18,083 nucleotides of DNA, from IMG/VR virus record IMGVR_UViG_2651869755_000020; one strand, 5' to 3'. Shown piece by piece: positions 2,664-17,710 of this stretch. Made by a program: the position numbers and the translations under genes. Source of the DNA: a virus (lineage: Duplodnaviria; Heunggongvirae; Uroviricota; Caudoviricetes). The notes beneath the pieces are model-generated. The model searched no databases. It was not told the DNA's origin and saw nothing but the letters and a program-made list of their open reading frames with translations. The first letter of the stretch is position 1, and every line of letters begins with the position of its first letter.

Positions 2664-3110
2664 ATGTACTGCACCCTGGAGGATTTGCTTGCGCAGGTGC
2701 CGGAGCGGACGCTTATCGAACTCACCAGTGAAGAGATGGACTTCGACTCGCCTGCAACAGTGAATACCCGTGTGGTGGACAGCTGTATCCGCTATGCCGA
2801 CGAGCTGATTGATGCCCATCTGCGCGGACGCTATATCCTGCCACTGGCAGAGATACCGACTGTTCTGCGGGACATTGCCATCACGCTGGTCCGTTACCGG
2901 CTCTACGCCCGCCGCCCGGAAGGTGACCTCCCGGATACGGTGAAGGATGACCACAAAGAAGCGCTGCGGCAACTCAGGGAGTTACGTGATAACAGGCTCA
3001 CGCTGGGGCTGCCGTCCACTCAGAAAGATGTGCCTGAGCCTGGCGAGTTTCGTGTACGCAGTCGCCCGGCCACTTTCGGCGGTCGTGACGGTTTACTGGA
3101 GAAATACTGA
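2664..3110 (+). CDS. head-tail joining / neck protein (Mu gp36-position, DUF1320-like)
   Basis: ATG at 2664 lies 1 nt after the upstream stop (2660-2662) and is in frame with the track ORF 2502..3110. The earlier start would overlap the preceding gene by 160 bp, so the 148-aa version is preferred. Position matches Mu neck genes. Confidence 0.55.
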   Translation: MYCTLEDLLAQVPERTLIELTSEEMDFDSPATVNTRVVDSCIRYADELIDAHLRGRYILPLAEIPTVLRDIAITLVRYRLYARRPEGDLPDTVKDDHKEALRQLRELRDNRLTLGLPSTQKDVPEPGEFRVRSRPATFGGRDGLLEKY

Positions 3111-3574
3111 TGAACGTTCTGCCCGTCCTTGATGCGGTGCTGGCCCGGTTACGCGAGAAGCTGCCGCAACTGCAGGTGGAGTACTTCCCGGAGAAACCGG
3201 CTGAATATCGCCTGAACCATCCGGTTGGCGCGTTGCTGCTGAGCTATGCCGGTTCGCGCTTTGACAGGCCGGATGATACCGGTGCGGTGATCCAGTCTCA
3301 GACTATCCAGCTCTGCGTCACGGTGGTCTTCCGCCAGCTCAACGGTAAAAAAGGGGCGATTAATGTCCTGGATGCTGTCCGCCGCATTCTCGGTGGCCAC
3401 ACCCCGCCCGGGTGCCGCTGCCGTATCTGGCTGACCCGCGAGGTGTTTATCGGTGAAGTCAGGGGGCTGTGGCAATACGCCCTCGACTTCGCGACTGAAA
3501 GCATCTTTATCGAAGACAGCGATTTACCGTCCGGCCCGCTGTTAACCGAAGTGAACTATGAGGAAAGCGAGTGA
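3110..3574 (+). CDS. head/neck completion protein (Mu gp37-position)
   Basis: 154-aa ORF whose ATG overlaps the upstream stop (ATGA-type overlap at 3108-3112), indicating translational coupling within the operon. Confidence 0.55.
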   Translation: MNVLPVLDAVLARLREKLPQLQVEYFPEKPAEYRLNHPVGALLLSYAGSRFDRPDDTGAVIQSQTIQLCVTVVFRQLNGKKGAINVLDAVRRILGGHTPPGCRCRIWLTREVFIGEVRGLWQYALDFATESIFIEDSDLPSGPLLTEVNYEESE

Positions 3575-3825
3575 TGAAAGAATACCGCTATTCCGGCCCG
3601 GCCAGCGGCGTCACGCTGTCGGACGGAACCGAAATCCTGCTCTGGCCGGGGAAGACGGTTTCCCTGCCGGAGGAGCATGACTACGTGAAGGTACTGGTGG
3701 CGCTGAAGCATCTGACGCCGGTACCAGAAGATACTAAACCCGCCGTCACACCGGCTGTGCAGTCACCAAAGCGCAGAAGCAGCAGTGACAGCGAAGTGAA
3801 AACGGAGGACGCCCATGGCAGCTAA
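3574..3825 (+). CDS. small phage protein of unknown function (Mu gp38-position)
   Basis: ATG at 3574 with AGGAAA/GAGG upstream, overlapping the upstream stop. The track starts it at GTG 3571. C-terminal tail is Ser/Lys/Glu-rich. Overlaps the sheath gene start by 11 nt. Confidence 0.5.
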   Translation: MKEYRYSGPASGVTLSDGTEILLWPGKTVSLPEEHDYVKVLVALKHLTPVPEDTKPAVTPAVQSPKRRSSSDSEVKTEDAHGS

Positions 3826-5242
3826 CTATCTGCATGGTCCCGAAACCATTGAGGTGGAAAACGGAGCCCGCCCGGTTAAAACGGTGAAATCTGCCGTTAT
3901 TGGCCTGATTGGTACCGCCCCGATGGGGGATGTCAATACGCTGGTACAGTGCCTGTCTGAGAAAGACGCAGCGGCATTTGGCAGCCAGTTCACCGGCTTT
4001 ACCATTCCGCAGGCGCTGGATGCGATTTATGACCATGGTGCAGGCACCGTTCTGGTCATTAACGTCCTCGACCCGGCGAAACATAAAACGGCGATCGAGG
4101 ATGAGGTGGTTACCTTTGACAAATCGACAGGGCAGGCCAGACTGGCGCATCCGGTTGTCGCTAATGTGGTGGTGAAAAACAGTGAAGGCAGCACCACCCA
4201 CACGGCGAACACGGACTACCGTGTTGATGCGCAGGCGGGTGTGCTCACGAACCTGGGCAAGGCTATTGAGGCCGGTGGCAGCGTGAAGGTGAGCTATGAG
4301 TACGCGGACCCGTCGAAGGTGACTGCGGCGGACATCATCGGCGGGGTGAACAGCGCCGGAAACCGAACCGGCATGAAGCTGCTTAACGACAGCTTCAACC
4401 TGTACGGCTATTTCGCCAAAATTCTGATTGCGCCGGTGTTCTGCACCCAGAAGAGTGTCGCAGTTGAGCTTATCGCCATGGCAGAGAAGCTGGGCGCGGT
4501 AACCTACATTGATGCGCCTGTCGGTACCACCTTTGCACAGGCTCTGGCAGGTCGTGGCCCGGAAGGCACCATCAACTTCAATACCAGCTCCGACCGCGTC
4601 CGTCTGTGCTATCCGCATGTGAAGGTATATGACCCGGTGACAAACACAGAGCGTCTGGAGCCGCTCAGCCAGCGTGCAGCAGGTCTGCGTGCCAGAGTCG
4701 ATCTGGACAAGGGCTACTGGTGGTCATCCTCCAATCAGGAGATTCTGGGGATCACCGGCGTGGAGCGCCAGCTGTCCGCGATGATTGATGACCCGCAGAG
4801 TGAGGTGAACCTGCTTAACGAACAGGGGATCACCACGGTATTCAGCAGTTACGGCAGCGGCCTTCGTCTGTGGGGTAACCGGACGGCAGCATGGCCAACG
4901 GTCACCCATATGCGTAACTTTGAGAACGTTCGCCGCACCGGTGATGTGATCAACGAGTCCATTCGTTATTTCAGCCAGCAGTACATCGACATGCCGATTA
5001 CTCAGGCGCTGATTGATGCACTGACGGAGTCGGTCAACGCCTACGGTCGCAAAATGACTGGTGATGGTGCGGTACTGGGCTTCCGTTGCTGGTTTGATCC
5101 GGCCCGCAATCCGGAGACGGAGCTGGCCGCCGGGCACCTGTTGCTGAGCTACAAATATACGCCACCACCGCCGCTGGAGCGACTGACGTTTGAGACTGAG
5201 ATCACCTCGGAATACCTGTTAACCCTGAAAGGGGGCAACTGA
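3815..5242 (+). CDS. contractile tail sheath protein
   Basis: 475-aa ORF with GGAGG RBS at 3803-3807. Size and position (immediately before a roughly 170-aa tube gene) are diagnostic of myovirus sheath proteins. Confidence 0.85.
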   Translation: MAANYLHGPETIEVENGARPVKTVKSAVIGLIGTAPMGDVNTLVQCLSEKDAAAFGSQFTGFTIPQALDAIYDHGAGTVLVINVLDPAKHKTAIEDEVVTFDKSTGQARLAHPVVANVVVKNSEGSTTHTANTDYRVDAQAGVLTNLGKAIEAGGSVKVSYEYADPSKVTAADIIGGVNSAGNRTGMKLLNDSFNLYGYFAKILIAPVFCTQKSVAVELIAMAEKLGAVTYIDAPVGTTFAQALAGRGPEGTINFNTSSDRVRLCYPHVKVYDPVTNTERLEPLSQRAAGLRARVDLDKGYWWSSSNQEILGITGVERQLSAMIDDPQSEVNLLNEQGITTVFSSYGSGLRLWGNRTAAWPTVTHMRNFENVRRTGDVINESIRYFSQQYIDMPITQALIDALTESVNAYGRKMTGDGAVLGFRCWFDPARNPETELAAGHLLLSYKYTPPPPLERLTFETEITSEYLLTLKGGN

Positions 5243-5763
5243 TGTCAAAGATTGAGATAAACCGCATCACGAATGCCAACATCTATCTGGATGGTACTAA
5301 CCTGCTGGGACGGGCTGAGGAAGTCAAACTCCCCGATGTCTCCATGATTATGCAGGAACACAAGGCGCTGGGGATGGTGGGTAAGGTGGAACTCCCGGCT
5401 GGTTTTGACAAGCTGGAAGGCGAAATCAAATGGAACAGCTTTTACCGCGATGCGATGCTGTCTGCCGCGAACCCGTACAGGTCGCTGGCACTGCAGTGTC
5501 GTTCCAGCGTCCAGCGCTACAGCTCGCAGGGGCTGATTGACGAAATCCCGCTGGTCACCTTCCTGACGATTATGTTCAAGAAGAACCCGCTGGGGACGTT
5601 CAAACAGCACGAGAACGCCGAGTTCTCCAGTAGCTTCACCTGCACGTATATCAGACAGGTACTGGATGGTGAAGAGCTGCTGCAACTGGACTATCTGGCC
5701 AACATCTTCCGGGTCGGCGGTGTTGATCAACTGACTGACTACCGTATCAATATCGGGGGCTGA
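5242..5763 (+). CDS. tail tube protein
   Basis: 173-aa ORF whose start overlaps the sheath stop. Classic sheath-tube gene pair. Confidence 0.8.
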   Translation: MSKIEINRITNANIYLDGTNLLGRAEEVKLPDVSMIMQEHKALGMVGKVELPAGFDKLEGEIKWNSFYRDAMLSAANPYRSLALQCRSSVQRYSSQGLIDEIPLVTFLTIMFKKNPLGTFKQHENAEFSSSFTCTYIRQVLDGEELLQLDYLANIFRVGGVDQLTDYRINIGG

Positions 5764-6144: not shown

Positions 6145-6480
6145 ATGTCACAGACCCCATCCGATACTTTTAAATTGTCTTATCCCTTCACCACTGCTGC
6201 AGGCACCAGAATTGAGCTGGTTGAACTGAAACGCCTGACGGTAAAAGACCTGAAGCAGGTGCGCAAAATCAGCAAAAACCCGGCAGACTGGGACGAACCG
6301 CTGATTGCCCGCAGTACTGGTCTTCTCCCGGAAGATCTCGACAATATGGATCTGGCTGATTACCTGCAGTTACAGAAACGATTTCAGCTCATCACGGGGA
6401 TGGGTGAGAGCAACCAGGGCGCTGACGCAGGCGCAGGGGCTGCTGGCGAGATGGTTCCGGTTTCAGCCGGGGGAGATTGA
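6145..6480 (+). CDS. tail assembly chaperone (position equivalent to lambda G / P2 E / Mu gp41)
   Basis: 111-aa ORF with AGGAG RBS 8 nt upstream, located between the tube and tape measure genes. Acidic protein, as expected for tape-measure chaperones. Confidence 0.6.
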   Translation: MSQTPSDTFKLSYPFTTAAGTRIELVELKRLTVKDLKQVRKISKNPADWDEPLIARSTGLLPEDLDNMDLADYLQLQKRFQLITGMGESNQGADAGAGAAGEMVPVSAGGD

Positions 6481-6637: not shown

Positions 6638-9600
6638 ATGTCGGGACAGTTTTCAGTCGGCGTTGTTATCGGCGGGATGATTGGCAGCACATTCCGTTCT
6701 GCAATGAGCGGTACCCGCCGTGCGCTTGATTCCCTGAGCGATACCTCACGCCGCCTGCAGGAACGTCAGAACGCTTTAACCCGTGCAACAGAACGTTATG
6801 GTCAACTGGGTTCTTCCCGGATGCAGCATCTCAACAGCGAGCTGCTGCGGGTAAGCCGCACCATGGAGCAAATTGAGCGCCAGCAGCGCCGTCTGTCAGC
6901 GGCATCCGCTACCAGTGATGCGCTGAAAGCTAACCGCATGGCGCTGTATGGTCAGGGGATTGAAGCGTATGGCATGGCACAGACTGTTTATCATACGGTT
7001 TCCCCTGCCGTTCAGCAGTCCATGTCTTTTCAGGACAAAATGATTGATATGTCGATCACCGCAAAATATGACAATAAAACGCGGGATGCACTTGCCGGAC
7101 AGATAAAAGGCTGGGCGCTTAAATACAATCAGTATCAGGATGAGCTGCAGGAGGCGGTGGGTTCACTCATCAGCGACAATATTGATAATGTGTCAGATAT
7201 CGGTTTTCTGATGCCGGATATTGCCCGCGCGGCAACGGCAACACGCACGTCTGCTCAGGACTGGGCAAAAGTGGCCGCAGTCTGGCAAAACTCCCTGAAA
7301 GGTGCGGCCAGAGATTTTGGTGCCGTTCAGAATATTATGGCTTATGCCGGTGACCAGGGGTCATTTGAAATCCCGGATCAGGTCAAGTGGATGCAGTCCC
7401 TGGCCCCAATGATGGCGGGTCTTGCCAGTGGAAAAGAGGCTGTTGCTGAAATCGGGGCCAGTCTCCAGATAGCAAAAATCGGTGCAGGTTCCACCGACGA
7501 AGCAGCCAATAATTTTAAAAACTTTCTTACCAAAATTTTTGCCCGCGATACTCAGAAACAGTTTGCTGATCTGGGTATTGATTTGCAGGGATCTATTGCG
7601 AGTTATAAAGCTGCGGGGATCTCTCCGATTGAAGGGATGTTGAGTGTTATAGAACGTTACCTCAATGCCAAAAGCCCCGAAGCGCTGGCCGGCTTCAAAT
7701 CAGCCATGAAAATAAAGAATGATACGGCAAGAGATGAGGCACTTCAGGCTCTGGCGAAAAACTTTGGTCTGGGCGATATGTTCGCGGATATGCAGGTCAT
7801 GGCATTTATCCGCCCGATGCTGGCCAACATGGACAGATATCGAGAGATCCGTGCCGGTGCTCTCAGGGCTGCGGATAACGATTTGCTTGCCAGTGCTTAT
7901 GATCAGCGGCTGAAATCTCCCCTTGAAGCCACTAAAACACTTATGGTCAGCAGTCGCGATCTGGCAATTACGCTGGGCGATCAATTAGCTCCATCTTTTA
8001 TTTCTCTGACTCAGGAACTGCTCCCACTCATTCAGGGGACAAAACACTGGGTAGCGACTCACCCGCAATTTGTCAGTGGGGCTTTTAAGCTCATCAGTGC
8101 GCTCCTTGCGATTAAGATAGCGACTATTGGTCTCAAACTGGGGCTGAATCTCCTTATTTCCCCCTTTGTGAACGTCTGGAAAACTACTGTTTTACTCCGG
8201 ACCAACTGGCATCGACTGACTACCGCACTCGGAGAAGGTGGCAAATTACGCTGGCTTGTCACTGGATTCAGCCGACTGACCAGCGGAGGACTGAAACTCA
8301 GCAAAGTTCTGGCGGGCAGCCTCGTTCGCGGTTTTATGAGCGCTGCACGTGCCGTTCTCTGGATTGGGCGAGCGCTGATGATGAATCCCATCGGTCTCGT
8401 TATCACCGCTGTCGCGACAGCAGCTTACCTTATCTACCGCAACTGGGGGGCTGTCAGTGGTTGGTTTAAACAGCGCTGGGCTGACATTCAGGAAGCCTTT
8501 AACGGCGGCATTGTGGGAATTGGTAAGTTGCTGATTAACTGGTCGCCGGCAGGCCTGCTCTATAAAGCCTTTGCGGCTGCGCTGAAATATTTCGGCGTTG
8601 CTCTGCCGGCAAAGTTCACCGACTTCGGTGGCCATCTTATCGACGGTCTGATTAACGGTATCAAAAGCAAATGGGGGTCGCTCAAATCCAGTGTAACCGG
8701 AATGGGTGACAGCATCAGTAGCTGGTTTAAACAGCGCTGGGCTGACATTCAGGAAGCCTTTAACGGCGGCATTGTGGGAATTGGTAAGTTGCTGATTAAC
8801 TGGTCGCCGGCAGGCCTGCTCTATAAAGCCTTTGCGGCTGCGCTGAAATATTTCGGCGTTGCTCTGCCGGCAAAGTTCACCGACTTCGGTGGCCATCTTA
8901 TCGACGGTCTGATTAACGGTATCAAAAACAAATGGGGGTCGCTCAAATCCAGTGTAACCGGAATGGGTGACAGCATCAGTAGCTGGTTTAAACAGTGCTG
9001 GGCTGACATTCAGGAAGCCTTTAACGGCGGTATCGCGGGAACTGGTAAGCTGCTGATTAACTGGTCGCCGGCAGGTCTGCTCTATAAAGCCTTTGCAGCT
9101 GCGCTGAAATATCTTGGTGTTGATCTGCCGGCAAAGTTCACCGACTTCGGTGGCCATCTTGTCGACGGTCTGATTAACGGTATCAAAAACAAATGGGAGT
9201 CGCTCAAATCCAGTGTAACCGGAATGGGTGACAGCATCAGTGGCTGGTTCAGCGAAAAGCTGGGCATTCATTCGCCGAGCCGCGTGTTTATGGGCTTTGG
9301 TGACAATATCGCGCAGGGGGCCGCCATTGGCCTGCAGCGGACCACTCCGCTTGCAGCTCTGGCCGGGCAGCGAATGGCCAGTGAACTGCTCCCCAGAATG
9401 CCCGTGAGCATTCAGGGGCCAGAAATACGGGATAACACTTCAGGTGTTCGCTTCAGTATGCCGTTGCCCGATATCAATGGGTTTATGTCGTCTGCTAAAA
9501 ATGCGATCGGAGCCGTAATCAATAGTTTGTCTTCCATGCCCGTTATTCCGCTCTCCACCCGGGCATCGATTTTACCAGGGCAACGTCTGGCAAATGAGAT

Positions 9601-9850
9601 GACACCGGATGTTCCCCGTATCCCCTCGCCTGAAATCCTGGCTGCCGGATATTCAGGCCGTGGTGCAGCTGCAACCGGCGGTGGAACGTCTGGTGGTATC
9701 CAGGTCAGCTTTAATCCTCAGTTTTTCCTCAATGGCAGGGAAACCACAGCGCCTGCAGGACTGACTGGTGCCCTGAATATGAGTCTGCATGAGCTGGAAA
9801 AAATGCTGGAGCGTCTGCTGGCTCAGAAACAACGTAAGGAGTACCGCTGA
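6638..9850 (+). CDS. tail tape measure protein
   Basis: 1070-aa ORF with GGAGG RBS, the largest gene, directly downstream of the chaperone pair. Has a long helical N-terminal half and internal tandem repeats. Start of the downstream gene overlaps its stop. Confidence 0.9.
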   Translation: MSGQFSVGVVIGGMIGSTFRSAMSGTRRALDSLSDTSRRLQERQNALTRATERYGQLGSSRMQHLNSELLRVSRTMEQIERQQRRLSAASATSDALKANRMALYGQGIEAYGMAQTVYHTVSPAVQQSMSFQDKMIDMSITAKYDNKTRDALAGQIKGWALKYNQYQDELQEAVGSLISDNIDNVSDIGFLMPDIARAATATRTSAQDWAKVAAVWQNSLKGAARDFGAVQNIMAYAGDQGSFEIPDQVKWMQSLAPMMAGLASGKEAVAEIGASLQIAKIGAGSTDEAANNFKNFLTKIFARDTQKQFADLGIDLQGSIASYKAAGISPIEGMLSVIERYLNAKSPEALAGFKSAMKIKNDTARDEALQALAKNFGLGDMFADMQVMAFIRPMLANMDRYREIRAGALRAADNDLLASAYDQRLKSPLEATKTLMVSSRDLAITLGDQLAPSFISLTQELLPLIQGTKHWVATHPQFVSGAFKLISALLAIKIATIGLKLGLNLLISPFVNVWKTTVLLRTNWHRLTTALGEGGKLRWLVTGFSRLTSGGLKLSKVLAGSLVRGFMSAARAVLWIGRALMMNPIGLVITAVATAAYLIYRNWGAVSGWFKQRWADIQEAFNGGIVGIGKLLINWSPAGLLYKAFAAALKYFGVALPAKFTDFGGHLIDGLINGIKSKWGSLKSSVTGMGDSISSWFKQRWADIQEAFNGGIVGIGKLLINWSPAGLLYKAFAAALKYFGVALPAKFTDFGGHLIDGLINGIKNKWGSLKSSVTGMGDSISSWFKQCWADIQEAFNGGIAGTGKLLINWSPAGLLYKAFAAALKYLGVDLPAKFTDFGGHLVDGLINGIKNKWESLKSSVTGMGDSISGWFSEKLGIHSPSRVFMGFGDNIAQGAAIGLQRTTPLAALAGQRMASELLPRMPVSIQGPEIRDNTSGVRFSMPLPDINGFMSSAKNAIGAVINSLSSMPVIPLSTRASILPGQRLANEMTPDVPRIPSPEILAAGYSGRGAAATGGGTSGGIQVSFNPQFFLNGRETTAPAGLTGALNMSLHELEKMLERLLAQKQRKEYR
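8462..9244 (+). repeat. three tandem 261-bp (87-codon) in-frame repeats inside the tape measure gene
   Basis: Unit begins TGGTTTAAACAGCGCTGGGCTGACATTCAGGAAGCC at 8462, 8723 and 8984. Copies 1 and 2 differ at a single base (AAAAGC vs AAAAAC). Copy 3 carries about a dozen substitutions. Confidence 0.9.
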
Positions 9851-10734
9851 TGTTTGCCGTACTGGGTGATATTGAGTTTGAGCTGATTACCTACTGGGAC
9901 GGCTTCGAGGCCACGTTCGGCGTCGATTATGCGGAGCATGCCCGCATCGGGGGTAAGCCTGGCCTGCAGTTCGTCGGCGACAGGCTGGACGAAATCCAGA
10001 TAACTCTGGTTTTCCATCAGCATTATTGTGTACCCGATGTGGAGCTGGCGAGACTGCGAACAGCCATGAAAGCCCATCAGGCACTGGCGCTGGTCTTCGG
10101 CAACGGTGACTATCGCGGCTGGTTCGTGATTACCGATGTGACTGCAACCAGCGAGCAGACTGACAGTACCGGCAACGTGCTGGCTGTCAGTGCCACCGTG
10201 TCTCTCCGGGAATACACCGGTGACCCGAAAAATCCTCTGCAACCACCGGCAATACGCACGAAGCTCCCGGGTGTCGGGGCGGTCTCCGGTGCCATTCCTT
10301 CACCTTCCGGGGTGGCGCAGTTCATCCGCAACGGCGTCAACTATGCGAAACAGGCGCAGTCTGTACTCCAGACCACTATCAGCGCCGTTCGAGTGACACA
10401 GAAAATGAAGGATAACCCCGTTGTCGCACTGACCCGTGTGCCGGGGCTGATGAGCGGACTGGGTAATATCTCCGGGGCTCTGGGGAAAAGTGTTCCGGCG
10501 TTTAACGCACTCTCTGAATCCATGCCCGATGCCATCAGTCTGGCCAGAACAGCCAGCGAAGCAGCCACGTATGTACAGCAGGCACAGTCTGCGCTGAGTG
10601 GTGTGGACAAAAGAAATATTGCAGGTGCTCTGGATACCGTTTCCGGGCAGCTTAACGCCGTCGGAACAGCATTCAACCGCATGTCTCCGGGATTAAGTGC
10701 AATGGCCGCCAGAATACTGACGAGGAGTGTGTGA
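9850..10734 (+). CDS. tail protein with P2 gpU-like N-terminal domain (Mu gpN / DNA-circularisation protein position)
   Basis: 294-aa ORF with start overlapping the TMP stop. N-terminus (MFAVLGDIEFEL...GKPGLQFVGDRLDEIQITLVFH...GNGDYRGWFVITDV...SLREY) follows the gpU family pattern as I recall it. Sits immediately after the tape measure gene as in Mu. Confidence 0.6.
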   Translation: MFAVLGDIEFELITYWDGFEATFGVDYAEHARIGGKPGLQFVGDRLDEIQITLVFHQHYCVPDVELARLRTAMKAHQALALVFGNGDYRGWFVITDVTATSEQTDSTGNVLAVSATVSLREYTGDPKNPLQPPAIRTKLPGVGAVSGAIPSPSGVAQFIRNGVNYAKQAQSVLQTTISAVRVTQKMKDNPVVALTRVPGLMSGLGNISGALGKSVPAFNALSESMPDAISLARTASEAATYVQQAQSALSGVDKRNIAGALDTVSGQLNAVGTAFNRMSPGLSAMAARILTRSV

Positions 10735-10946
10735 TGTTTCTTGAACATGTTACCCGTGACGGAGAGCGCTGGGATTCGCTGGCATGGCAGTACTACGGTG
10801 ACCCGCTGGGCTATCCCCGGATTATTGCCGCCAATCCGCACGTGGCCATCACGCCGGTGCTGCCCTCCGGGCTGTTGTTACTGATCCCGGTGATTGAGGC
10901 TGAAGAAGCCCGTACAGAAGAGGATATTGCCCCATGGCTGAGATAA
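10731..10946 (+). CDS. tail protein X-like small protein (LysM-like fold family)
   Basis: 71-aa ORF with GAGGAG RBS and ATGA overlap with the upstream stop. Sequence (RWDSLAWQYYGDPLGYPRIIAANPHVA...LPSGLLLLIP) resembles P2 gpX-type proteins that precede gpD homologues. Confidence 0.55.
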   Translation: MMFLEHVTRDGERWDSLAWQYYGDPLGYPRIIAANPHVAITPVLPSGLLLLIPVIEAEEARTEEDIAPWLR

Positions 10947-12106
10947 ACAGCACTGCGCAAGTCACATCAGCGTTAACCGGCGTCAGCGATGTGCTGACAC
11001 CGGTGTTCACTCTGTGGTATCTGCAGAAAAACATCACCTCTGATATCGCGCCTTATGTCACCCGTGTGACCTGGAGCGATAACATCAAAAATGAGTCCGA
11101 TACCATTGAGGTGGAGCTGGACGACACCGATGGCCGCTGGCTGGATAAGTGGTATCCGGGCAAGGGTGACACGCTGACGCTGAAAATGGGCTATCAGGAC
11201 GAGAAGCTGCTGTCCTGCGGTACGTTCTCTATAGACGAGATCGAAGTGAGTTCGCCCGCTTCCGTTGTTTCTATCCGTGGGGTGGCCACCTCGGTTAACA
11301 GTGCCCTGCGGACTAAAACCAGTCGTGGTTTTGAGAACACCACGCTGGCAGCTGTTGCGGGGCGGATTGCCAGAAAGCACCGGCTGAAACTGGTGGGCAG
11401 CATTGAGTCCATCAGAATCGACCGGGTGACCCAGTATGCTGAAACCGACGTGGGTTTTCTGCGCCGGCTGGCCAGCGAGTATGGTTATGCAGTGAAAGTG
11501 GTCAGTGACCAGCTGATTTTTTCTCATCTGGCCACACTGCGCAGTCAGGAGCCGGTCAGGCAGTTAAAACCGCAGGATGTGGCCCGCTTTTCCCTGCGTG
11601 ACACCATCAACCGGGTCTATAAATCTGCAAAGGTAAAACACCAGAAAAGCAGCAGTAAAAAACTGATCGTCTACGAAGCTGATGGTGGTACCCGTGAAAG
11701 CGACAAAAAGCTCAAAGGTGGTAAGGTTACCAGCGCTGACTCACTTAAAGTTAACAGCCGCGTCAGCGACCCGGACAGTGCCCGGATTAAAGCGGATTCA
11801 GCACTGGCCAGACATAACGAATACCAGCAGAACGGCTCCCTGACGCTGACGGGAACACCTCAACTGACAGCAGGCAACAAAATTGAACTGGTGGGTTTTG
11901 GGCAGTTATCCGGGCCATGGCTCATAACCACTGCCCGCCATGCGTTTGACCGTAACAGCGGCTACACCACAGAGCTGGAAGTGGCACGGGGGCCGATCAC
12001 ACAGGGCAAGGCGAAGAAAGGTAAAAAAATCGGCAAAACCCGGATGCTGACCATCTATAAACCGGACGGCAGCACGTCCACAGTAATAAGAGAGAAGAAA
12101 AAATGA
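10934..12106 (+). CDS. tail/baseplate hub protein, P2 gpD-like (Mu gpP position)
   Basis: 390-aa ORF following the X-like gene and preceding the spike gene. Lys-rich C-terminus. Order X-D-V-W-J-I matches Mu/P2-type baseplate modules. Confidence 0.65.
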   Translation: MAEINSTAQVTSALTGVSDVLTPVFTLWYLQKNITSDIAPYVTRVTWSDNIKNESDTIEVELDDTDGRWLDKWYPGKGDTLTLKMGYQDEKLLSCGTFSIDEIEVSSPASVVSIRGVATSVNSALRTKTSRGFENTTLAAVAGRIARKHRLKLVGSIESIRIDRVTQYAETDVGFLRRLASEYGYAVKVVSDQLIFSHLATLRSQEPVRQLKPQDVARFSLRDTINRVYKSAKVKHQKSSSKKLIVYEADGGTRESDKKLKGGKVTSADSLKVNSRVSDPDSARIKADSALARHNEYQQNGSLTLTGTPQLTAGNKIELVGFGQLSGPWLITTARHAFDRNSGYTTELEVARGPITQGKAKKGKKIGKTRMLTIYKPDGSTSTVIREKKK

Positions 12107-14195: not shown

Positions 14196-14766
14196 GCCAT
14201 TACAACTCCCGCCACCGCTTGAGGGTGATATCAGTCTCAGGACGCTGGGAAGACTGGCAGGGCGGCTGGATAACATCGACCTGAGCGTACTGATGGTCTT
14301 TCTCGTCGATATCGTCGACAGTTCTGCGCTGCCATGGCTGGGCGAGCAGTTCTCACTGTCTGGCGATGGCTGGGAGCTGGCGGAATCGGACGATGTTCGC
14401 CGCATGCTTATAAAAGCAGCCATCGAACTACACCGGTATAAAGGGACGCCGTGGTCAATCCGGGAAGTTATCCGCCGTTTTGGCTTTGGTGAAGTGGATC
14501 TGATTGAAGGCACAGGTCGTCTCAGTTACGACGGCAATCGCAGCTATAACGGACTGTTTGTTCATGGAGATGCAGCCGCCTGGGCGGTTTATCGCGTTAT
14601 TCTGAAACAGCCCATTACTAACGATCAGGCCGCGATGCTGCGTCAGACGCTCGCTGCATTTGCACCGGCCCGCTGCCATCTGGCCAGCCTGGAGTATCAG
14701 TCTGTGGCCATTCGCTATAACAATACCGCCATCCATGATGGCAGTTATAACCACGGGAGCAGTTGA
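14188..14766 (+). CDS. baseplate/tail protein I-like (Mu gp48 position)
   Basis: ATG at 14188 (MTEPLQLPPPLEGD...) is in frame with the track ORF that begins at GTG 14176. It overlaps the upstream stop by 8 nt. 192 aa, immediately before the tail fiber gene as in P2 (I-H) and Mu (R-S). Confidence 0.65.
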   Translation: MTEPLQLPPPLEGDISLRTLGRLAGRLDNIDLSVLMVFLVDIVDSSALPWLGEQFSLSGDGWELAESDDVRRMLIKAAIELHRYKGTPWSIREVIRRFGFGEVDLIEGTGRLSYDGNRSYNGLFVHGDAAAWAVYRVILKQPITNDQAAMLRQTLAAFAPARCHLASLEYQSVAIRYNNTAIHDGSYNHGSS

Positions 14767-14768
14767 TT

Positions 14769-16391
14769 ATGGGAAACCTGAATGAAACAGAAAAGTGGGA
14801 AGAAAAAATCTATCAACTGGAGACATCAGATCCGGTTCTGGGTGGTGCTGACGGGATATCAAATCGAGCCCCCCGGCAACTGGCAAACAGGACGAAATGG
14901 CTGAAGAAAAAAACGGAGGAAGCCGCACAGTCACTGGCTGAACACGTACGTTCCCGTAACCACCCGGACGCGACACTGACAGCTAAGGGGTTCACCCAAC
15001 TGAGCAGTGCCACCAACAGCACCTCTGAAACGCTGGCCGCCACACCAAAAGCCGTCAAGGCTGCATACGACCTTGCAGCCGGCAAGGCACCCGTCAGTCA
15101 CACTCACCCGTGGAGTCAGATAACGGGAGTGCCTGCTGCCTCGCTGACGGCAAAAGGCACCGTACAGCTGAGCAGTGCCACGGACAGTCAATCAGAAACT
15201 GAGGCTGCCACGCCGAAGGCTGTGAAAATCGCGTATGATCTGGCCCGGGGAAAATACACAGCCCAGGATGCAACAACGACCCGTAAAGGGATCGTACAAC
15301 TGAGCAGTGCCACCAACAGCACCTCTGAAACGCTGGCCGCCACACCAAAGGCCGTCAAGGCTGCATATGACCTGGCTGCCGGCAAGGCCCCCGTCAGCCA
15401 CACTCACCCGTGGAGTCAGATAACGGGAGTGCCTGCTGCCTCGCTGACGGCAAAAGGCACCGTACAACTGAGCAGCGCCACGGACAGTCAATCAGAAACT
15501 GAGGCTGCCACGCCGAAGGCGGTCAAGGCTGCATACGACCTTGCAGCCGGCAAGGCGCCCGTCAGCCACACTCACCCGTGGAGTCAGATAACGGGAGTGC
15601 CTGCTGCCTCGCTGACGGCAAAAGGCACCATACAATTGAGCAGTGCCATCAACAGCACGTCTGAAATACTGGCCGCCACACCGAAAGCGGTCAAGGCTGC
15701 ATACGATCTGGCAAACGGAAAACAACCGGCAGATGCCACGCTCACTGCTCTGGCAGGACTTGCCACTGCAGCAGATCGGTTGCCTTATTTTACCGGAGCA
15801 GACCGCGCAGCGCTGGCAACCCTTACAGCTATTGGTCGCGCTATTATCGCTAAGGGCAGTATAAAAGATGTCCTCAATTACCTTGGTTTGGGGGAAGGCT
15901 CTGCACTGCCTGTTGGTGTGCCTGTTCCATGGCCCACCGCCACACCGCCAGCAGGCTGGTTAAAGTGCGACGGGCGCGCCTTTACAAAAGAACAATATCC
16001 TGTTCTGGCCAGAGTCTACCCGACCCTCCGTCTTCCCGATTTGCGCGGTGAGTTTATCCGTGGATGGGACGACGGGCGCAAAGTTGATACGGGGCGTTCA
16101 TTGCTAAGTGGTCAGGCTGCAACATTTATTCGTACAGCTTTGCAGGATTATTACGGTTACGATCTGAATACTAATGTCAAAGTAGGTATCGCTTTTGCTA
16201 CTGCTGATTCTGTTATAACCGTTGGAAACCCAGCTAATCCTAAAGCAGGAAAAAATAGCGATTATGTTCCTGCATCAGCAGATAACTCTATAACGGGTAT
16301 TCAAAGGACAGCGGAGGATAATTTTACCGGGGCATGGATATCAATGCGCCCCCGCAATGTTGCGTTTAATTACATCGTAAGGGCCGCATAA
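14769..16391 (+). CDS. tail fiber protein with internal phage-fiber repeats and a C-terminal collar-type receptor-binding domain
   Basis: 540-aa ORF from ATG 14769 (GGGAG RBS about 10 nt upstream; the track starts at TTG 14763). Five copies of the motif LTAKG-x-QLSSAT-x-S-x-SET-x-AATPKAVK-x-AYDLA, typical of lambda Stf / Mu S / P2 H fibers. C-terminal region (PWPTATPPAGWLKCDGRAF...LPDLRGEFIRGWDDGR) resembles the phage tail collar domain. Confidence 0.85.
   Translation: MGNLNETEKWEEKIYQLETSDPVLGGADGISNRAPRQLANRTKWLKKKTEEAAQSLAEHVRSRNHPDATLTAKGFTQLSSATNSTSETLAATPKAVKAAYDLAAGKAPVSHTHPWSQITGVPAASLTAKGTVQLSSATDSQSETEAATPKAVKIAYDLARGKYTAQDATTTRKGIVQLSSATNSTSETLAATPKAVKAAYDLAAGKAPVSHTHPWSQITGVPAASLTAKGTVQLSSATDSQSETEAATPKAVKAAYDLAAGKAPVSHTHPWSQITGVPAASLTAKGTIQLSSAINSTSEILAATPKAVKAAYDLANGKQPADATLTALAGLATAADRLPYFTGADRAALATLTAIGRAIIAKGSIKDVLNYLGLGEGSALPVGVPVPWPTATPPAGWLKCDGRAFTKEQYPVLARVYPTLRLPDLRGEFIRGWDDGRKVDTGRSLLSGQAATFIRTALQDYYGYDLNTNVKVGIAFATADSVITVGNPANPKAGKNSDYVPASADNSITGIQRTAEDNFTGAWISMRPRNVAFNYIVRAA
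14976..15720 (+). repeat. in-frame direct repeats inside the tail fiber gene (five fiber-repeat units; two about 220-bp stretches nearly identical)
   Basis: Units start near 14976, 15144, 15281, 15445 and 15613. Stretches beginning CAACTGAGCAGTGCCACCAACAGCACCTCTGAAACG at 14997 and 15298 remain near-identical for about 220 bp. Confidence 0.85.
15881..15922 (+). repeat. left inverted repeat of the invertible cassette; overlaps a hix/gix-like crossover site (about 15871-15896, core TT at 15883-15884)
   Basis: CCTTGGTTTGGGGGAAGGCTCTGCACTGCCTGTTGGTGTGCC. Its reverse complement matches 16416-16457 at 40 of 42 positions. The half-sites around the TT core resemble the 12-2-12 recombination sites of Hin/Gin/Cin/Pin invertases. 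Confidence 0.7.
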
Positions 16392-16415
16392 AAACGTTGG
16401 TTTAGGAGAAGGCTC

Positions 16416-16457
16416 GGCACACCAACAGGCAATGCAGAGCCTTCCCCCAAACCAACG
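16416..16457 (-). repeat. right inverted repeat of the invertible cassette (core AA at 16454-16455), about 65 bp upstream of the invertase start
   Basis: GGCACACCAACAGGCAATGCAGAGCCTTCCCCCAAACCAACG is the reverse complement of the left repeat with 2 mismatches. Placement next to the invertase gene mirrors gixR/gin and hixR/hin. Confidence 0.7.
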
Positions 16458-16521
16458 TTTATCTCTCAAATCCTCCCCACATTATCTCAGTACTTTAACC
16501 ACTCAAAAGGGAGTATTTTTA

Positions 16522-17094
16522 ATGCTGATTGGCTACATACGTGTGTCAACAAATGACCAAAACACAGATTTGCAACGCAATGCATTAATGTGCGCAGGAT
16601 GTGAACAGATTTTTGAGGACAAAATGAGCGGAACCAAGTCGGAACGACCAGGCCTGAAACGCGCTTTAAAGTGCCTTAAAAGAGGGGATACATTGGTGGT
16701 CTGGAAGCTGGATCGGTTGGGTAGAAGAATGAAACACCTCATTGCTCTCACAGAAGAGCTACGCGCAAAAGGTGTCAATTTTCGCAGTCTGACGGATTCA
16801 ATCGATACCAGCACTCCGATGGGAAGGTTCTTTTTTCATATGATGGGTGCACTGGCAGAAATGGAGCGTGAACTGATAGTTGAGCGCACGCTGGCAGGAC
16901 TGGCTGCTGCGCGAGCACAAGGAAGAGTTGGAGGACGTCGCCCGAAACTGACGAAGGAGCAGCATGAGCAGATCGCAAGATTGCTCCAGAAAGGGTATGA
17001 CAGAAAGCGGCTGGCAATTATCTATGATATTGGACTGTCAACGATCTACCGCTACCACCCTGTTGGGACTGTCATAACGCAACCTGAAATGTAA
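16522..17094 (+). CDS. site-specific DNA invertase, serine recombinase of the Gin/Pin/Cin/Hin family
   Basis: 190-aa ORF from ATG 16522 (AAAGGGAG RBS). Begins MLIGYIRVSTNDQNTDLQRNAL..., with GDTLVVWKLDRLGR and the C-terminal HTH, near-identical in pattern to Gin/Pin as recalled. The track start at 16432 adds 30 non-conserved residues and overlaps the inverted repeat, so it is rejected. Confidence 0.9.
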   Translation: MLIGYIRVSTNDQNTDLQRNALMCAGCEQIFEDKMSGTKSERPGLKRALKCLKRGDTLVVWKLDRLGRRMKHLIALTEELRAKGVNFRSLTDSIDTSTPMGRFFFHMMGALAEMERELIVERTLAGLAAARAQGRVGGRRPKLTKEQHEQIARLLQKGYDRKRLAIIYDIGLSTIYRYHPVGTVITQPEM

Positions 17095-17172
17095 TTCTTT
17101 TTCAAATAATGAAACGCCGCGTGGATGCCATTTATCGCACAAGATAGAGTGCATTTATCGCGCGGCGCATCA
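17095..17172 (+). mobile_element. putative right terminus (attR end) of the Mu-like prophage with repeated transposase-binding-like motifs
   Basis: Two copies of GCATTTATCGC (17128-17141 and 17149-17163). Terminal sequence ...TTTATCGCGCGGCGCATCA ends in CA and matches my recollection of the Mu right end (...TTTTTCGTGCGCCGCTTCA) at about 15 of 19 positions. Host prpR coding sequence begins immediately after. Confidence 0.5.
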
Positions 17173-17710
17173 CGTCGGCGGGCATCAGCCTGTTCCGGTA
17201 GATGTACGGGTCATTAGCGCCACTCACTGCAATCTGGAAGAAGATATGCAGCAAGGACGTTTTCGCCGTGATCTGTTTTATCGGCTGAGTATTTTGCGTC
17301 TGCAATTGCCACCACTGCGCGAGCGGGTGGCGGATATTCTTCCGCTGGCGGAAAGCTTTTTGAAAGTGTCTCTGGCGGCGCTCTCCGCCCCATTTTCTGC
17401 TGCATTACGCCAGGGGTTACAGGCAAGTGAAACTGTGCTGCTGCACTACGACTGGCCAAGCAATATTCGTGAACTGCGCAATATGATGGAACGACTGGCG
17501 CTGTTTTTAAGTGTGGAACCGACGCCGGATTTAACGCCGCAGTTTATGCAACTGCTACTGCCGGAACTGGCGCGCGAGTCGGCGAAAACTCCCGCTCCAC
17601 GCTTACTGACACCACAACAGGCACTGGAGAAATTTAATGGCGATAAAACAGCAGCGGCGAATTATTTAGGCATCAGCCGGACGACGTTCTGGCGGCGGCT
17701 GAAAAGCTGA
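17173..17710 (+). pseudogene. prpR: 3' fragment (about 180 codons) of the sigma-54-dependent propionate regulator gene, cut by the prophage insertion
   Basis: The frame translates from about 17173 as ...VGGHQPVPVDVRVISATHCNLEEDMQQGRFRRDLFYRL..., the conserved end of a sigma-54 activator AAA+ domain, then a C-terminal Fis-type HTH (NYLGISRTTFWRRLKS). The same frame upstream of about 17170 is not activator-like. Convergent yahO follows after 97 bp, as in the E. coli yahO-prpR arrangement I recall. Confidence 0.7.

Follow-up and report, generated by a model that had tools for sequence, protein, structure and literature searches.

Tandem 261-bp units in the tape measure gene of a BcepMu-like Escherichia coli prophage differ in number among complete genomes

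Introduction

The length of the tape measure protein (TMP) is the textbook determinant of phage tail length. Most of the evidence for this comes from mutants engineered in a small number of phages whose tails are non-contractile. Each ring of the tail tube rises by ~4 nm. The ruler model is known from gpH of lambda, gp29 of T4, and gpT of P2 (Katsura and Hendrix; Abuladze et al.). In the lactococcal phage TP901-1, in-frame deletions and duplications in the TMP shift tail length in proportion to the number of residues, with 118 nm for ~810 length-determining residues (~0.146 nm per residue), and regions outside the classical repeats, including a hydrophobic region, likewise add length by residue count (PMC5099701). 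Tandem repeats often account for part of the length of a TMP (PMC3271669, PMC13585406), and change of TMP length by internal duplication and loss is already well known. Here we describe a clear natural case of this known process in an 18,083-nt stretch of viral DNA (IMG/VR record IMGVR_UViG_2651869755_000020; the stretch in its full length is called the window), in which the TMP gene of a BcepMu-like prophage of Escherichia coli holds three in-frame copies of a unit of 87 amino acids (aa).

We assign a probability of about 0.85 to the explanation taken as a whole, namely, that this is a real array of a conserved 87-aa module in a BcepMu-like TMP, that unequal recombination varies the number of units, and that the TMP acts as a ruler, so that tail length would follow unit number. 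Neither an array of this 87-aa module nor its variation between one, two, and three units in a common E. coli prophage was found in the literature searched.

An in-frame array of three 87-residue units

Tandem Repeats Finder places an array at positions 8454-9249 of the window, with a period of 261, 3.0 copies, 96% matches, 0 indels, and a score of 1466; near-identity across 261 bp is beyond chance. The first-pass annotation of this DNA had described three in-frame 261-bp units at 8462-9244, the first two of them one nucleotide apart. Both statements are exact by Tandem Repeats Finder and by comparison of the units, and the translations are the 87-aa peptide quoted there. Position 8462 is in frame with the open reading frame (ORF) at 6638..9850 (+), and the units run head-to-tail. 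At fifteen diagnostic unit positions (13, 48, 51, 53, 59, 67, 93, 114, 130, 132, 135, 140, 178, 215, and 259), window units 1 and 2, called the A type here, can be told from window unit 3, called the B type.

6638..9850, + strand: gene for the tail tape measure protein (1070 aa), containing the array (PF10145, TIGR01760, phrog_28)
8449..8466, + strand: upstream border of the array, with the short motif TCAGTGGTTGGTT (Ser-Gly-Trp-Phe), found again at the downstream border
8462-8722, + strand: repeat unit 1, A-type, 87 aa, with G at 8667 giving Ser69
8723-8983, + strand: repeat unit 2, A-type, differing from unit 1 at one base and matching exactly the first unit of the two-unit S7 allele
8984-9244, + strand: repeat unit 3, B-type, identical to the last unit of strain S7
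9232..9249, + strand: downstream border of the array, where the bracketing short repeat occurs for the second time, as TCAGTGGCTGGTT

The sole difference between units 1 and 2, G at 8667 and A at 8928, changes Ser to Asn at residue 69 of the unit. Unit 3 differs from unit 1 at 16 bases and from unit 2 at 15, which places it 8-9 aa away from both, and its protein sequence is nearer than that of the A-type units to the single unit of distant relatives. The homology overruns the units by 8 nt upstream and 5 nt downstream of the array, and TCAGTGGYTGGTT, which encodes Ser-Gly-Trp-Phe, stands at both borders.

Copy number among complete genomes

The key claims made here rest on complete genomes only; allele diversity among draft assemblies and protein clusters was left out of them, as hybrid units could result when short reads collapse. 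Of 5426 complete E. coli genomes, 636 (~12%) have a match to the TMP, including those of ST131 and of ABU 83972. The 3213-bp gene is present at 100.0% identity in at least 36 complete E. coli genomes from unrelated projects, and an IMG/VR locus (L033) carries an array identical to that of the window. Because these genomes and this locus share the identical array, three is the true copy number, and an assembly artifact in the window is very unlikely. The case for an artifact would be that the array does break assemblies, since it coincides with a sequencing gap in phage PhiKM, an N in one IMG/VR locus, and two contig ends (see below). However, at least 36 independent genomes would have had to arrive at the same 3213-bp gene, the units can be told apart (by 1 and by 15-16 differences), and an array of 783 bp is easily spanned by long reads. 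We therefore give an artifactual copy number almost no credence.

The frequency of each allele was estimated from two partly overlapping samples, each of 60 records drawn at even steps along the ranked list of hits. The query for sample 2 was a 1583-bp sub-region, in which alleles of three, two, and one units span 1583, 1322, and 1061 bp, respectively.

Three units, TMP gene of 3213 bp: 14 in sample 1, 13 in sample 2
Two units, TMP gene of 2952 bp: 38 in sample 1, 40 in sample 2
One unit, close lineage, TMP gene of 2691 bp: 2 in sample 1, 1 in sample 2
One unit, distant relatives, TMP gene of ~2454-2466 bp: 4 in sample 1, 4 in sample 2

The shares of sampled carrier genomes are ~22% for three units, ~65% for two, and ~2-3% for one. 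Full-length TMPs in the protein database are mainly of 1070, 983, and 896 aa, with a few off-step lengths, among the best 120 hits. A four-unit allele was not seen, with no TMP of 1157 aa among the best 120 protein hits and none in the 180 genome rows listed. Alleles that are otherwise near-identical thus differ in steps of whole units, as expected of unequal recombination. The first-pass annotation had predicted that unequal crossing-over here would change tail length in fixed steps; for the gene itself, such steps are borne out by the natural TMP genes of 2691, 2952, and 3213 bp, together with hybrid units that mark the crossovers. It had also allowed that long reads might reveal another copy number, or that related phages might have the same three copies at normal divergence; neither proved to be the case, and related prophages carry one, two, or three units.

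Among 23 other-species loci and 78 IMG/VR loci, every scorable relative below ~93% identity carries one unit, with the exception of two IMG/VR loci (L060 and L105). In these two, the TMPs are only 54-55% identical overall, and the module is doubled inside larger duplications (periods of 188 and 235 aa, residues ~648-968) that are independent of the array described here. Because the scored relatives from other genera carry one unit, the single unit is ancestral, with two and three units specific to the E. coli lineage.

Recombination history of the units

Strain S7 (L003) carries the allele [A][B] and shows 0 differences from the window in the 1824 + 606 bp (2430 bp) of flanking TMP sequence. 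Its two units match window units 2 and 3 at every base, so that S7 and the window differ by a single unit, and the window allele, [A'][A][B], equals the S7 allele plus one A unit, or the reverse. Alleles of the form [A][B] are spread over several flank lineages, and [A'][A][B] is limited to close relatives. In view of this distribution and of the identity between S7 and the window, the third unit is most simply taken as a recent addition, with [A'][A][B] as the derived state.

Hybrid units provide a record of individual exchanges. AVS0973 (L006), C9, 510016, and L034 carry [A][hybrid][B], in which the middle unit is B-type to position 59 and A-type from position 67. Such a B/A hybrid in the middle is exactly what an unequal crossover of [A][B] predicts. 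The single unit of MLI114, MLI121, L045, and L063 is A-type to position 93 and B-type from position 114, which is a deletion-type product. TUM14759 (L004) has a single unit that joins unit 1 (to position 13) and unit 2 (from position 93) of the two-unit allele found in strain 4/4-type genomes (L002; JJ1887, ST131), and this parent belongs to the same flank lineage. SK1144 (L112) has the order [A(Ser69)][A(Asn69)][B], with C at position 59 in both A units, and unit 1 of the two-unit allele of TUM13770 is SK1144 unit 2. Hybrid units with variable crossover points are expected of unequal recombination, and they point to several independent gains and losses at differing crossover points, with some patchy conversion in addition. 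The array thus appears to behave as any tandem array does under unequal homologous recombination. L005, which carries the single A/B hybrid, and L006 were considered as reciprocal products of one crossover, but their crossover intervals differ (93-114 and 59-67), and they were rejected as such and assigned to independent events, one of each expected kind.

Two further length variants come from single contigs and may be assembly errors. P0001 (1084 aa) has a 101-aa in-frame duplication that takes in hydrophobic segment 2 and the beginning of unit 1, and P0089 (995 aa) has a 12-aa duplication (GDSISSWFKQCW) at a unit junction.

The near-identity of units 1 and 2 had been ascribed in the first-pass annotation to a very recent duplication or to ongoing homogenization. 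The first of these fits the two-unit allele of S7, with its identical flanks and its correspondence to window units 2 and 3; the second does not hold as the main story. A and B types are ~5.7% (15 nt) apart in all lineages, and the same unit is more alike across lineages than are different units within one array; for these reasons the A/B duplication is old and general homogenization weak. Homogenization would nevertheless be central if the triplication were older and units 1 and 2 had been kept near-identical by gene conversion. SK1144 lends this some substance, as it has the same unit order with C at position 59 in both A units where the window has T in both, which suggests conversion between units or from B. 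So does unit 1 of the strain 4/4-type (ST131) allele, which has a B-type patch at positions 48-67. These traces amount to patchy conversion at most, and an older triplication leaves unexplained both the existence of S7 and the confinement of [A'][A][B] to close relatives of the window amid widespread [A][B] alleles, besides the constant distance between A and B. We consider it improbable and retain recent addition of an A unit as the preferred reading.

Proposed origin of the array

Both in single-unit alleles and in other genera, the unit lies between two copies of a short direct repeat, such as TCAGTGGCTGGTT in TUM14759 and MLI114 or GCGGCTGGTTTAAA in Trabulsiella and Limnobaculum. This bracketing microhomology is a plausible site of the first duplication, by slippage or illegitimate exchange. 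Under the proposed scheme, a single ancestral unit flanked by a 13-nt direct repeat (TCAGTGGYTGGTT) would have been duplicated once, and the two copies would then have diverged into the A and B types, ~5.7% apart. Homologous unequal recombination, the pathway we infer from the hybrids, would since have added or removed whole 261-bp units many times, giving rise to the alleles of 896, 983, and 1070 aa. The [A'][A][B] array of the window would represent the common [A][B] plus one recently added A unit.

The module and its setting in the protein

At E ≤ 0.001, matches to the 87-aa module were found in 595 representative proteins. Its usual place is at about residue 600-800 of TMPs of 800-1000 aa, and because many of the matched proteins hold 2-5 matched stretches, the module has been multiplied repeatedly across the wider family. 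When the TMP is aligned with 17 relatives, the unit lies within a conserved block (aa 494-725), and its mean identity to them is 0.70, versus 0.53 for the remaining TMP sequence. In the one-unit allele, block 697-725 reaches a mean identity of 0.91 to the same relatives. Three features adjoin or precede the array, the first two recognized by a Kyte-Doolittle scan and from the sequence.

8084..8179, + strand: first hydrophobic segment of the TMP, aa 483-514
8384..8437, + strand: second hydrophobic segment, aa 583-600, ending shortly ahead of the array
9245..9301, + strand: WFSEKLGIHSPSRVF motif, directly after the array and in the most conserved stretch of the TMP

Autocorrelation of Trp and Phe over aa 481-760 of the one-unit version revealed no excess at lag 11, 18, or 29, and z exceeded 2 only at lags 31 and 34. 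The array is therefore outside the class of 11/18-aa repeats marked by aromatic residues (Belcaid 2011; Mahony 2016). A single-sequence AlphaFold model of aa 555-921 is mostly helix, at a mean pLDDT of 41.9, which is too low to rely on.

Different parts of the TMP have different closest relatives. L055 and L061 are 83-84% identical to the N-terminal 540 aa of the window TMP and 48% identical to the unit, and L007 and L017 are 89-92% identical to the unit and 46% to the N-terminal part. As different relatives share the N-terminal part and the unit, the TMP is a mosaic, which implies recombination inside the TMP between phage lineages.

Expected effect on tail length

If the TP901-1 per-residue figure is applied to 87 aa, at 0.146-0.15 nm per residue, each unit would add ~12.7-13 nm of tail, or about three tube rings. 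Copy-number variation thus probably changes tail length: with the TMP acting as a ruler in the tail tube, each additional unit would mean ~13 nm more tail, corresponding to about three rings of tube and of sheath.

The extra units could also be real without having any role as a ruler, for example, if the module were a compact functional domain engaged in membrane insertion or DNA transit; copy number would then alter function, or nothing at all, and leave tail length unaffected. Its position in the conserved block right after the two hydrophobic segments and before the most conserved motif is in keeping with such a role, as are its matches to 595 representative proteins and its lack of the 11/18-aa aromatic periodicity of classical ruler repeats. 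However, regions of the TP901-1 TMP outside the repeats, the hydrophobic one among them, also count proportionally toward tail length. Many relatives carry 2-5 matched stretches, and some of these have correspondingly long proteins; the mostly helical low-confidence model adds slight weight on the same side. We regard a domain without ruler function as unlikely and continue to favor a contribution of each unit to tail length.

A stronger proposal is that the array serves as a recombination-driven dial of tail length under selection, with repeated gains and losses of the module giving one prophage lineage three or more discrete tail lengths. We hold this to be doubtful. If it were true, different lengths could be favored on hosts that differ in the thickness of the capsule or O antigen, in the manner of a contingency locus, and the copy number of a conserved module could tune DNA delivery as well as length.

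Several points weigh against the explanation as a whole. For a pure A unit to arise in the middle of the window array, the crossover has to fall no further than 12 nt into the unit or in the short homology at the border. Exchange within such short homology is unusual for a RecA-type process, and a classical crossover within the unit would have yielded a B/A hybrid; the border microhomology may have been the route to the pure A unit. The single base that distinguishes unit 1 from unit 2 may have been inherited and not have arisen by new mutation, because the G at 8667 is also found in unit 1 of SK1144 at the DNA level and Ser69 is found in the two-unit proteins P0029 and P0094. Some of the allele diversity seen in draft assemblies could be assembly collapse. 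The length effect itself is a prediction of the ruler model. Moreover, the unit is a conserved module with glycine-rich breaks rather than a plain spacer, so that it may not be extended by 1.5 Å per residue.

The antisense reading frame

The array also gives rise to a long frame on the opposite strand.

8246..9271, − strand: 341-aa antisense ORF, a by-product of the repeats, starting with ATG and itself a triple repeat in translation

The repeat unit has no stop in the codon-aligned antisense frame. In 81 distinct homologous units, stops are found in the antisense frame of 30 and in the sense frame of none (0/81), and the minimum numbers of substitutions at sense codon positions 1, 2, and 3 are 92, 81, and 192. 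Searches of protein families with the antisense ORF gave only hits below the cut-off, and no single stretch was significant alone. Because of the antisense stops in homologues, the third-position bias of the sense frame, and the lack of any family above threshold, the ORF is spurious, as the first-pass annotation had supposed when it attributed the frame to the repeats. The view that it is a real overlapping gene can point to its length, its ATG start, and sub-threshold Pfam hits such as that to IpaB_EvcA (29.0 bits; cut-off, 29.9). However, the hit totals are inflated by the triple repeat, and the antisense stops and the excess of substitutions at sense third positions speak against a gene. 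The ORF is also not annotated in the RefSeq record examined (2016C-3878). A real gene at this position is scarcely credible. A "hypothetical protein" annotated under the TMP of ABU 83972 was considered as the antisense ORF and rejected, as it is a same-strand N-terminal fragment of the TMP.

Effects on assembly and annotation

The first-pass annotation had warned that the region would collapse in short-read assemblies, and assemblies do fail at the array. In phage PhiKM, the annotation of the TMP reads "disrupted by sequencing gap," with the gap falling precisely on the array, and the contigs of L047 and L048 stop 31 residues into unit 1. L035 (IMG/VR UViG_2740892433_000005, 2825-4761) has seven full units and part of another. 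A single N interrupts the array at 3700, beyond which the sequence begins again at the upstream flank. The locus may be a scaffolding artifact or may point to an allele of at least four units; it was the only candidate for a four-unit allele and, in view of the N and the restart, was not accepted as one. Many TMP entries in the databases are marked "partial."

Annotation is affected as well. PGAP splits the three-unit TMP of AVS0973 (L006, 301-3513) into two "incomplete" pseudogene pieces, although the frame is uninterrupted over 1095 codons from stop to stop, and the TMP of SK1144 carries a similar "missing C-terminus" flag. Both flags are probably annotation artifacts caused by the extra repeat. 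The repeat has practical consequences as well, in that it breaks or collapses assemblies, misleads automatic annotation, and spawns a long false antisense ORF.

Contigs encoding this E. coli TMP at 96-99% identity were also found in the assemblies of Arthrobacter sp. GMC3 and Y81 (L010, L030, and L032). They measure 8.2 kb at a coverage of 7 and 0.5 kb at a coverage of 1-1.5 and are almost certainly E. coli contamination.

The prophage and its tail module

The identification of the gene as a tape measure, already made in the first-pass annotation, is upheld by family matches and by position. The TMP scores 74.6 bits (1.3e-20; cut-off, 33.2) against PhageMin_Tail (Pfam PF10145), 59.8 bits (cut-off, 28.8) against "tape_meas_TP901" (NCBIfam TIGR01760), and 2e-135 against "tail length tape measure protein" (phrog_28), and a 100%-identical gene in RefSeq is named "phage tail tape measure protein." It follows genes for the sheath, tube, and chaperone and precedes homologues of gpU, gpX, and gpD, and the RefSeq annotation of an identical prophage gives the same order of the tail module.

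3815-5242: sheath gene, upstream of the TMP
5242-5763: tube gene, upstream of the TMP
6145..6480, + strand: tail assembly chaperone, gpE-like (PF10109 at 5.5e-21), the expected upstream neighbor of the TMP
9850..10734, + strand: gpU-like tail protein (PF06995 at 7.4e-39), the expected downstream neighbor of the TMP
10934-12106: gpD homologue, downstream of the TMP
16432-17094: Gin-like invertase (Resolvase + HTH_7)

E. coli 2016C-3878 carries a prophage of ~32 kb whose DNA is 100% identical to the window over the TMP. It encodes a DDE transposase and a Gin-like recombinase, besides a DUF935 portal, head morphogenesis proteins like F and G of Mu, and a tail module of the P2 type. Among deposited phages, Escherichia phage PhiKM (PQ738613, Bcepmuvirus) is the closest, with 97.9% identity across the TMP. 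On the basis of this gene content and of PhiKM as the closest phage, the element is a BcepMu-like transposable prophage with a P2-type contractile tail. PhiKM has the same gene order as the window over the matched part (248 to ~16015); unlike the window, it has a TMP split at the array, where its copy number is unreadable. A literature search on PhiKM turned up only unrelated papers on phages of the phiKMV type.

The prophage of 2016C-3878 adjoins barA, and its homology to the window ends at 17172. Window ORF 17246-17710 then encodes the C-terminal part of a sigma-54-type activator (AAA_lid_14 + HTH_8). Because the homology stops there and is followed by this ORF, the chromosomal site in the source genome of the window differs from that in 2016C-3878, as expected of a transposable Mu-like phage.

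The tail fiber gene (14763-16391) has a tandem repeat of its own at 15285-15713, with a period of 168, 2.6 copies, and 85% matches, and its protein has five Phage_fiber_2 repeats. Its length varies in steps of 300 bp, being 300 bp shorter in PhiKM and 300 bp longer in 2016C-3878 than in the window, which makes it a second structural gene of variable copy number in the same prophage. From the tail fiber gene to the Gin-like invertase, the distance is 319 bp in the window and ~1.36 kb in 2016C-3878. When the region was compared between the window (15883-16432) and L009 (29760-31162), an inverted match of 92% was found between window 15883-16097 and L009 31162-30948. This looks like an invertible tail fiber segment, as in the G segment of Mu or the C segment of P1, that has been deleted or rearranged in the window.

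Comparison with known systems

The alleles of 896, 983, and 1070 aa form a natural series within one widespread, contractile-tailed prophage of E. coli. The series includes near-isogenic pairs (S7 and the window allele; TUM14759 and strain 4/4), so the ruler rule is directly testable in a myovirus.

The TMP of TP901-1 belongs to the same family of hidden Markov models (TIGR01760 / PF10145), and in both proteins hydrophobic segments are followed by a repeat-bearing region. However, TP901-1 has a non-contractile tail and 11/18-aa repeats marked by aromatic residues, whereas the tail here is of the contractile P2 type and the 87-aa module is without such periodicity. The length variants of TP901-1 were engineered; those described here are natural alleles.

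The 11-aa TMP repeats described by Belcaid, Bergeron and Poisson (2011, PMC3271669) resemble this array in that the number of units varies among related phages and the history of duplication and loss can be reconstructed. Unlike those repeats, the unit here is of 87 aa rather than 11 and has no 11-aa periodicity of Trp or Phe, and its hybrid units allow events to be traced to individual crossovers. As for gpH of lambda, gp29 of T4, and gpT of P2, the gene lies between those for a chaperone and for baseplate or hub proteins, and its length is expected to set that of the tail. The sequences of those proteins are only distantly related to this TMP.

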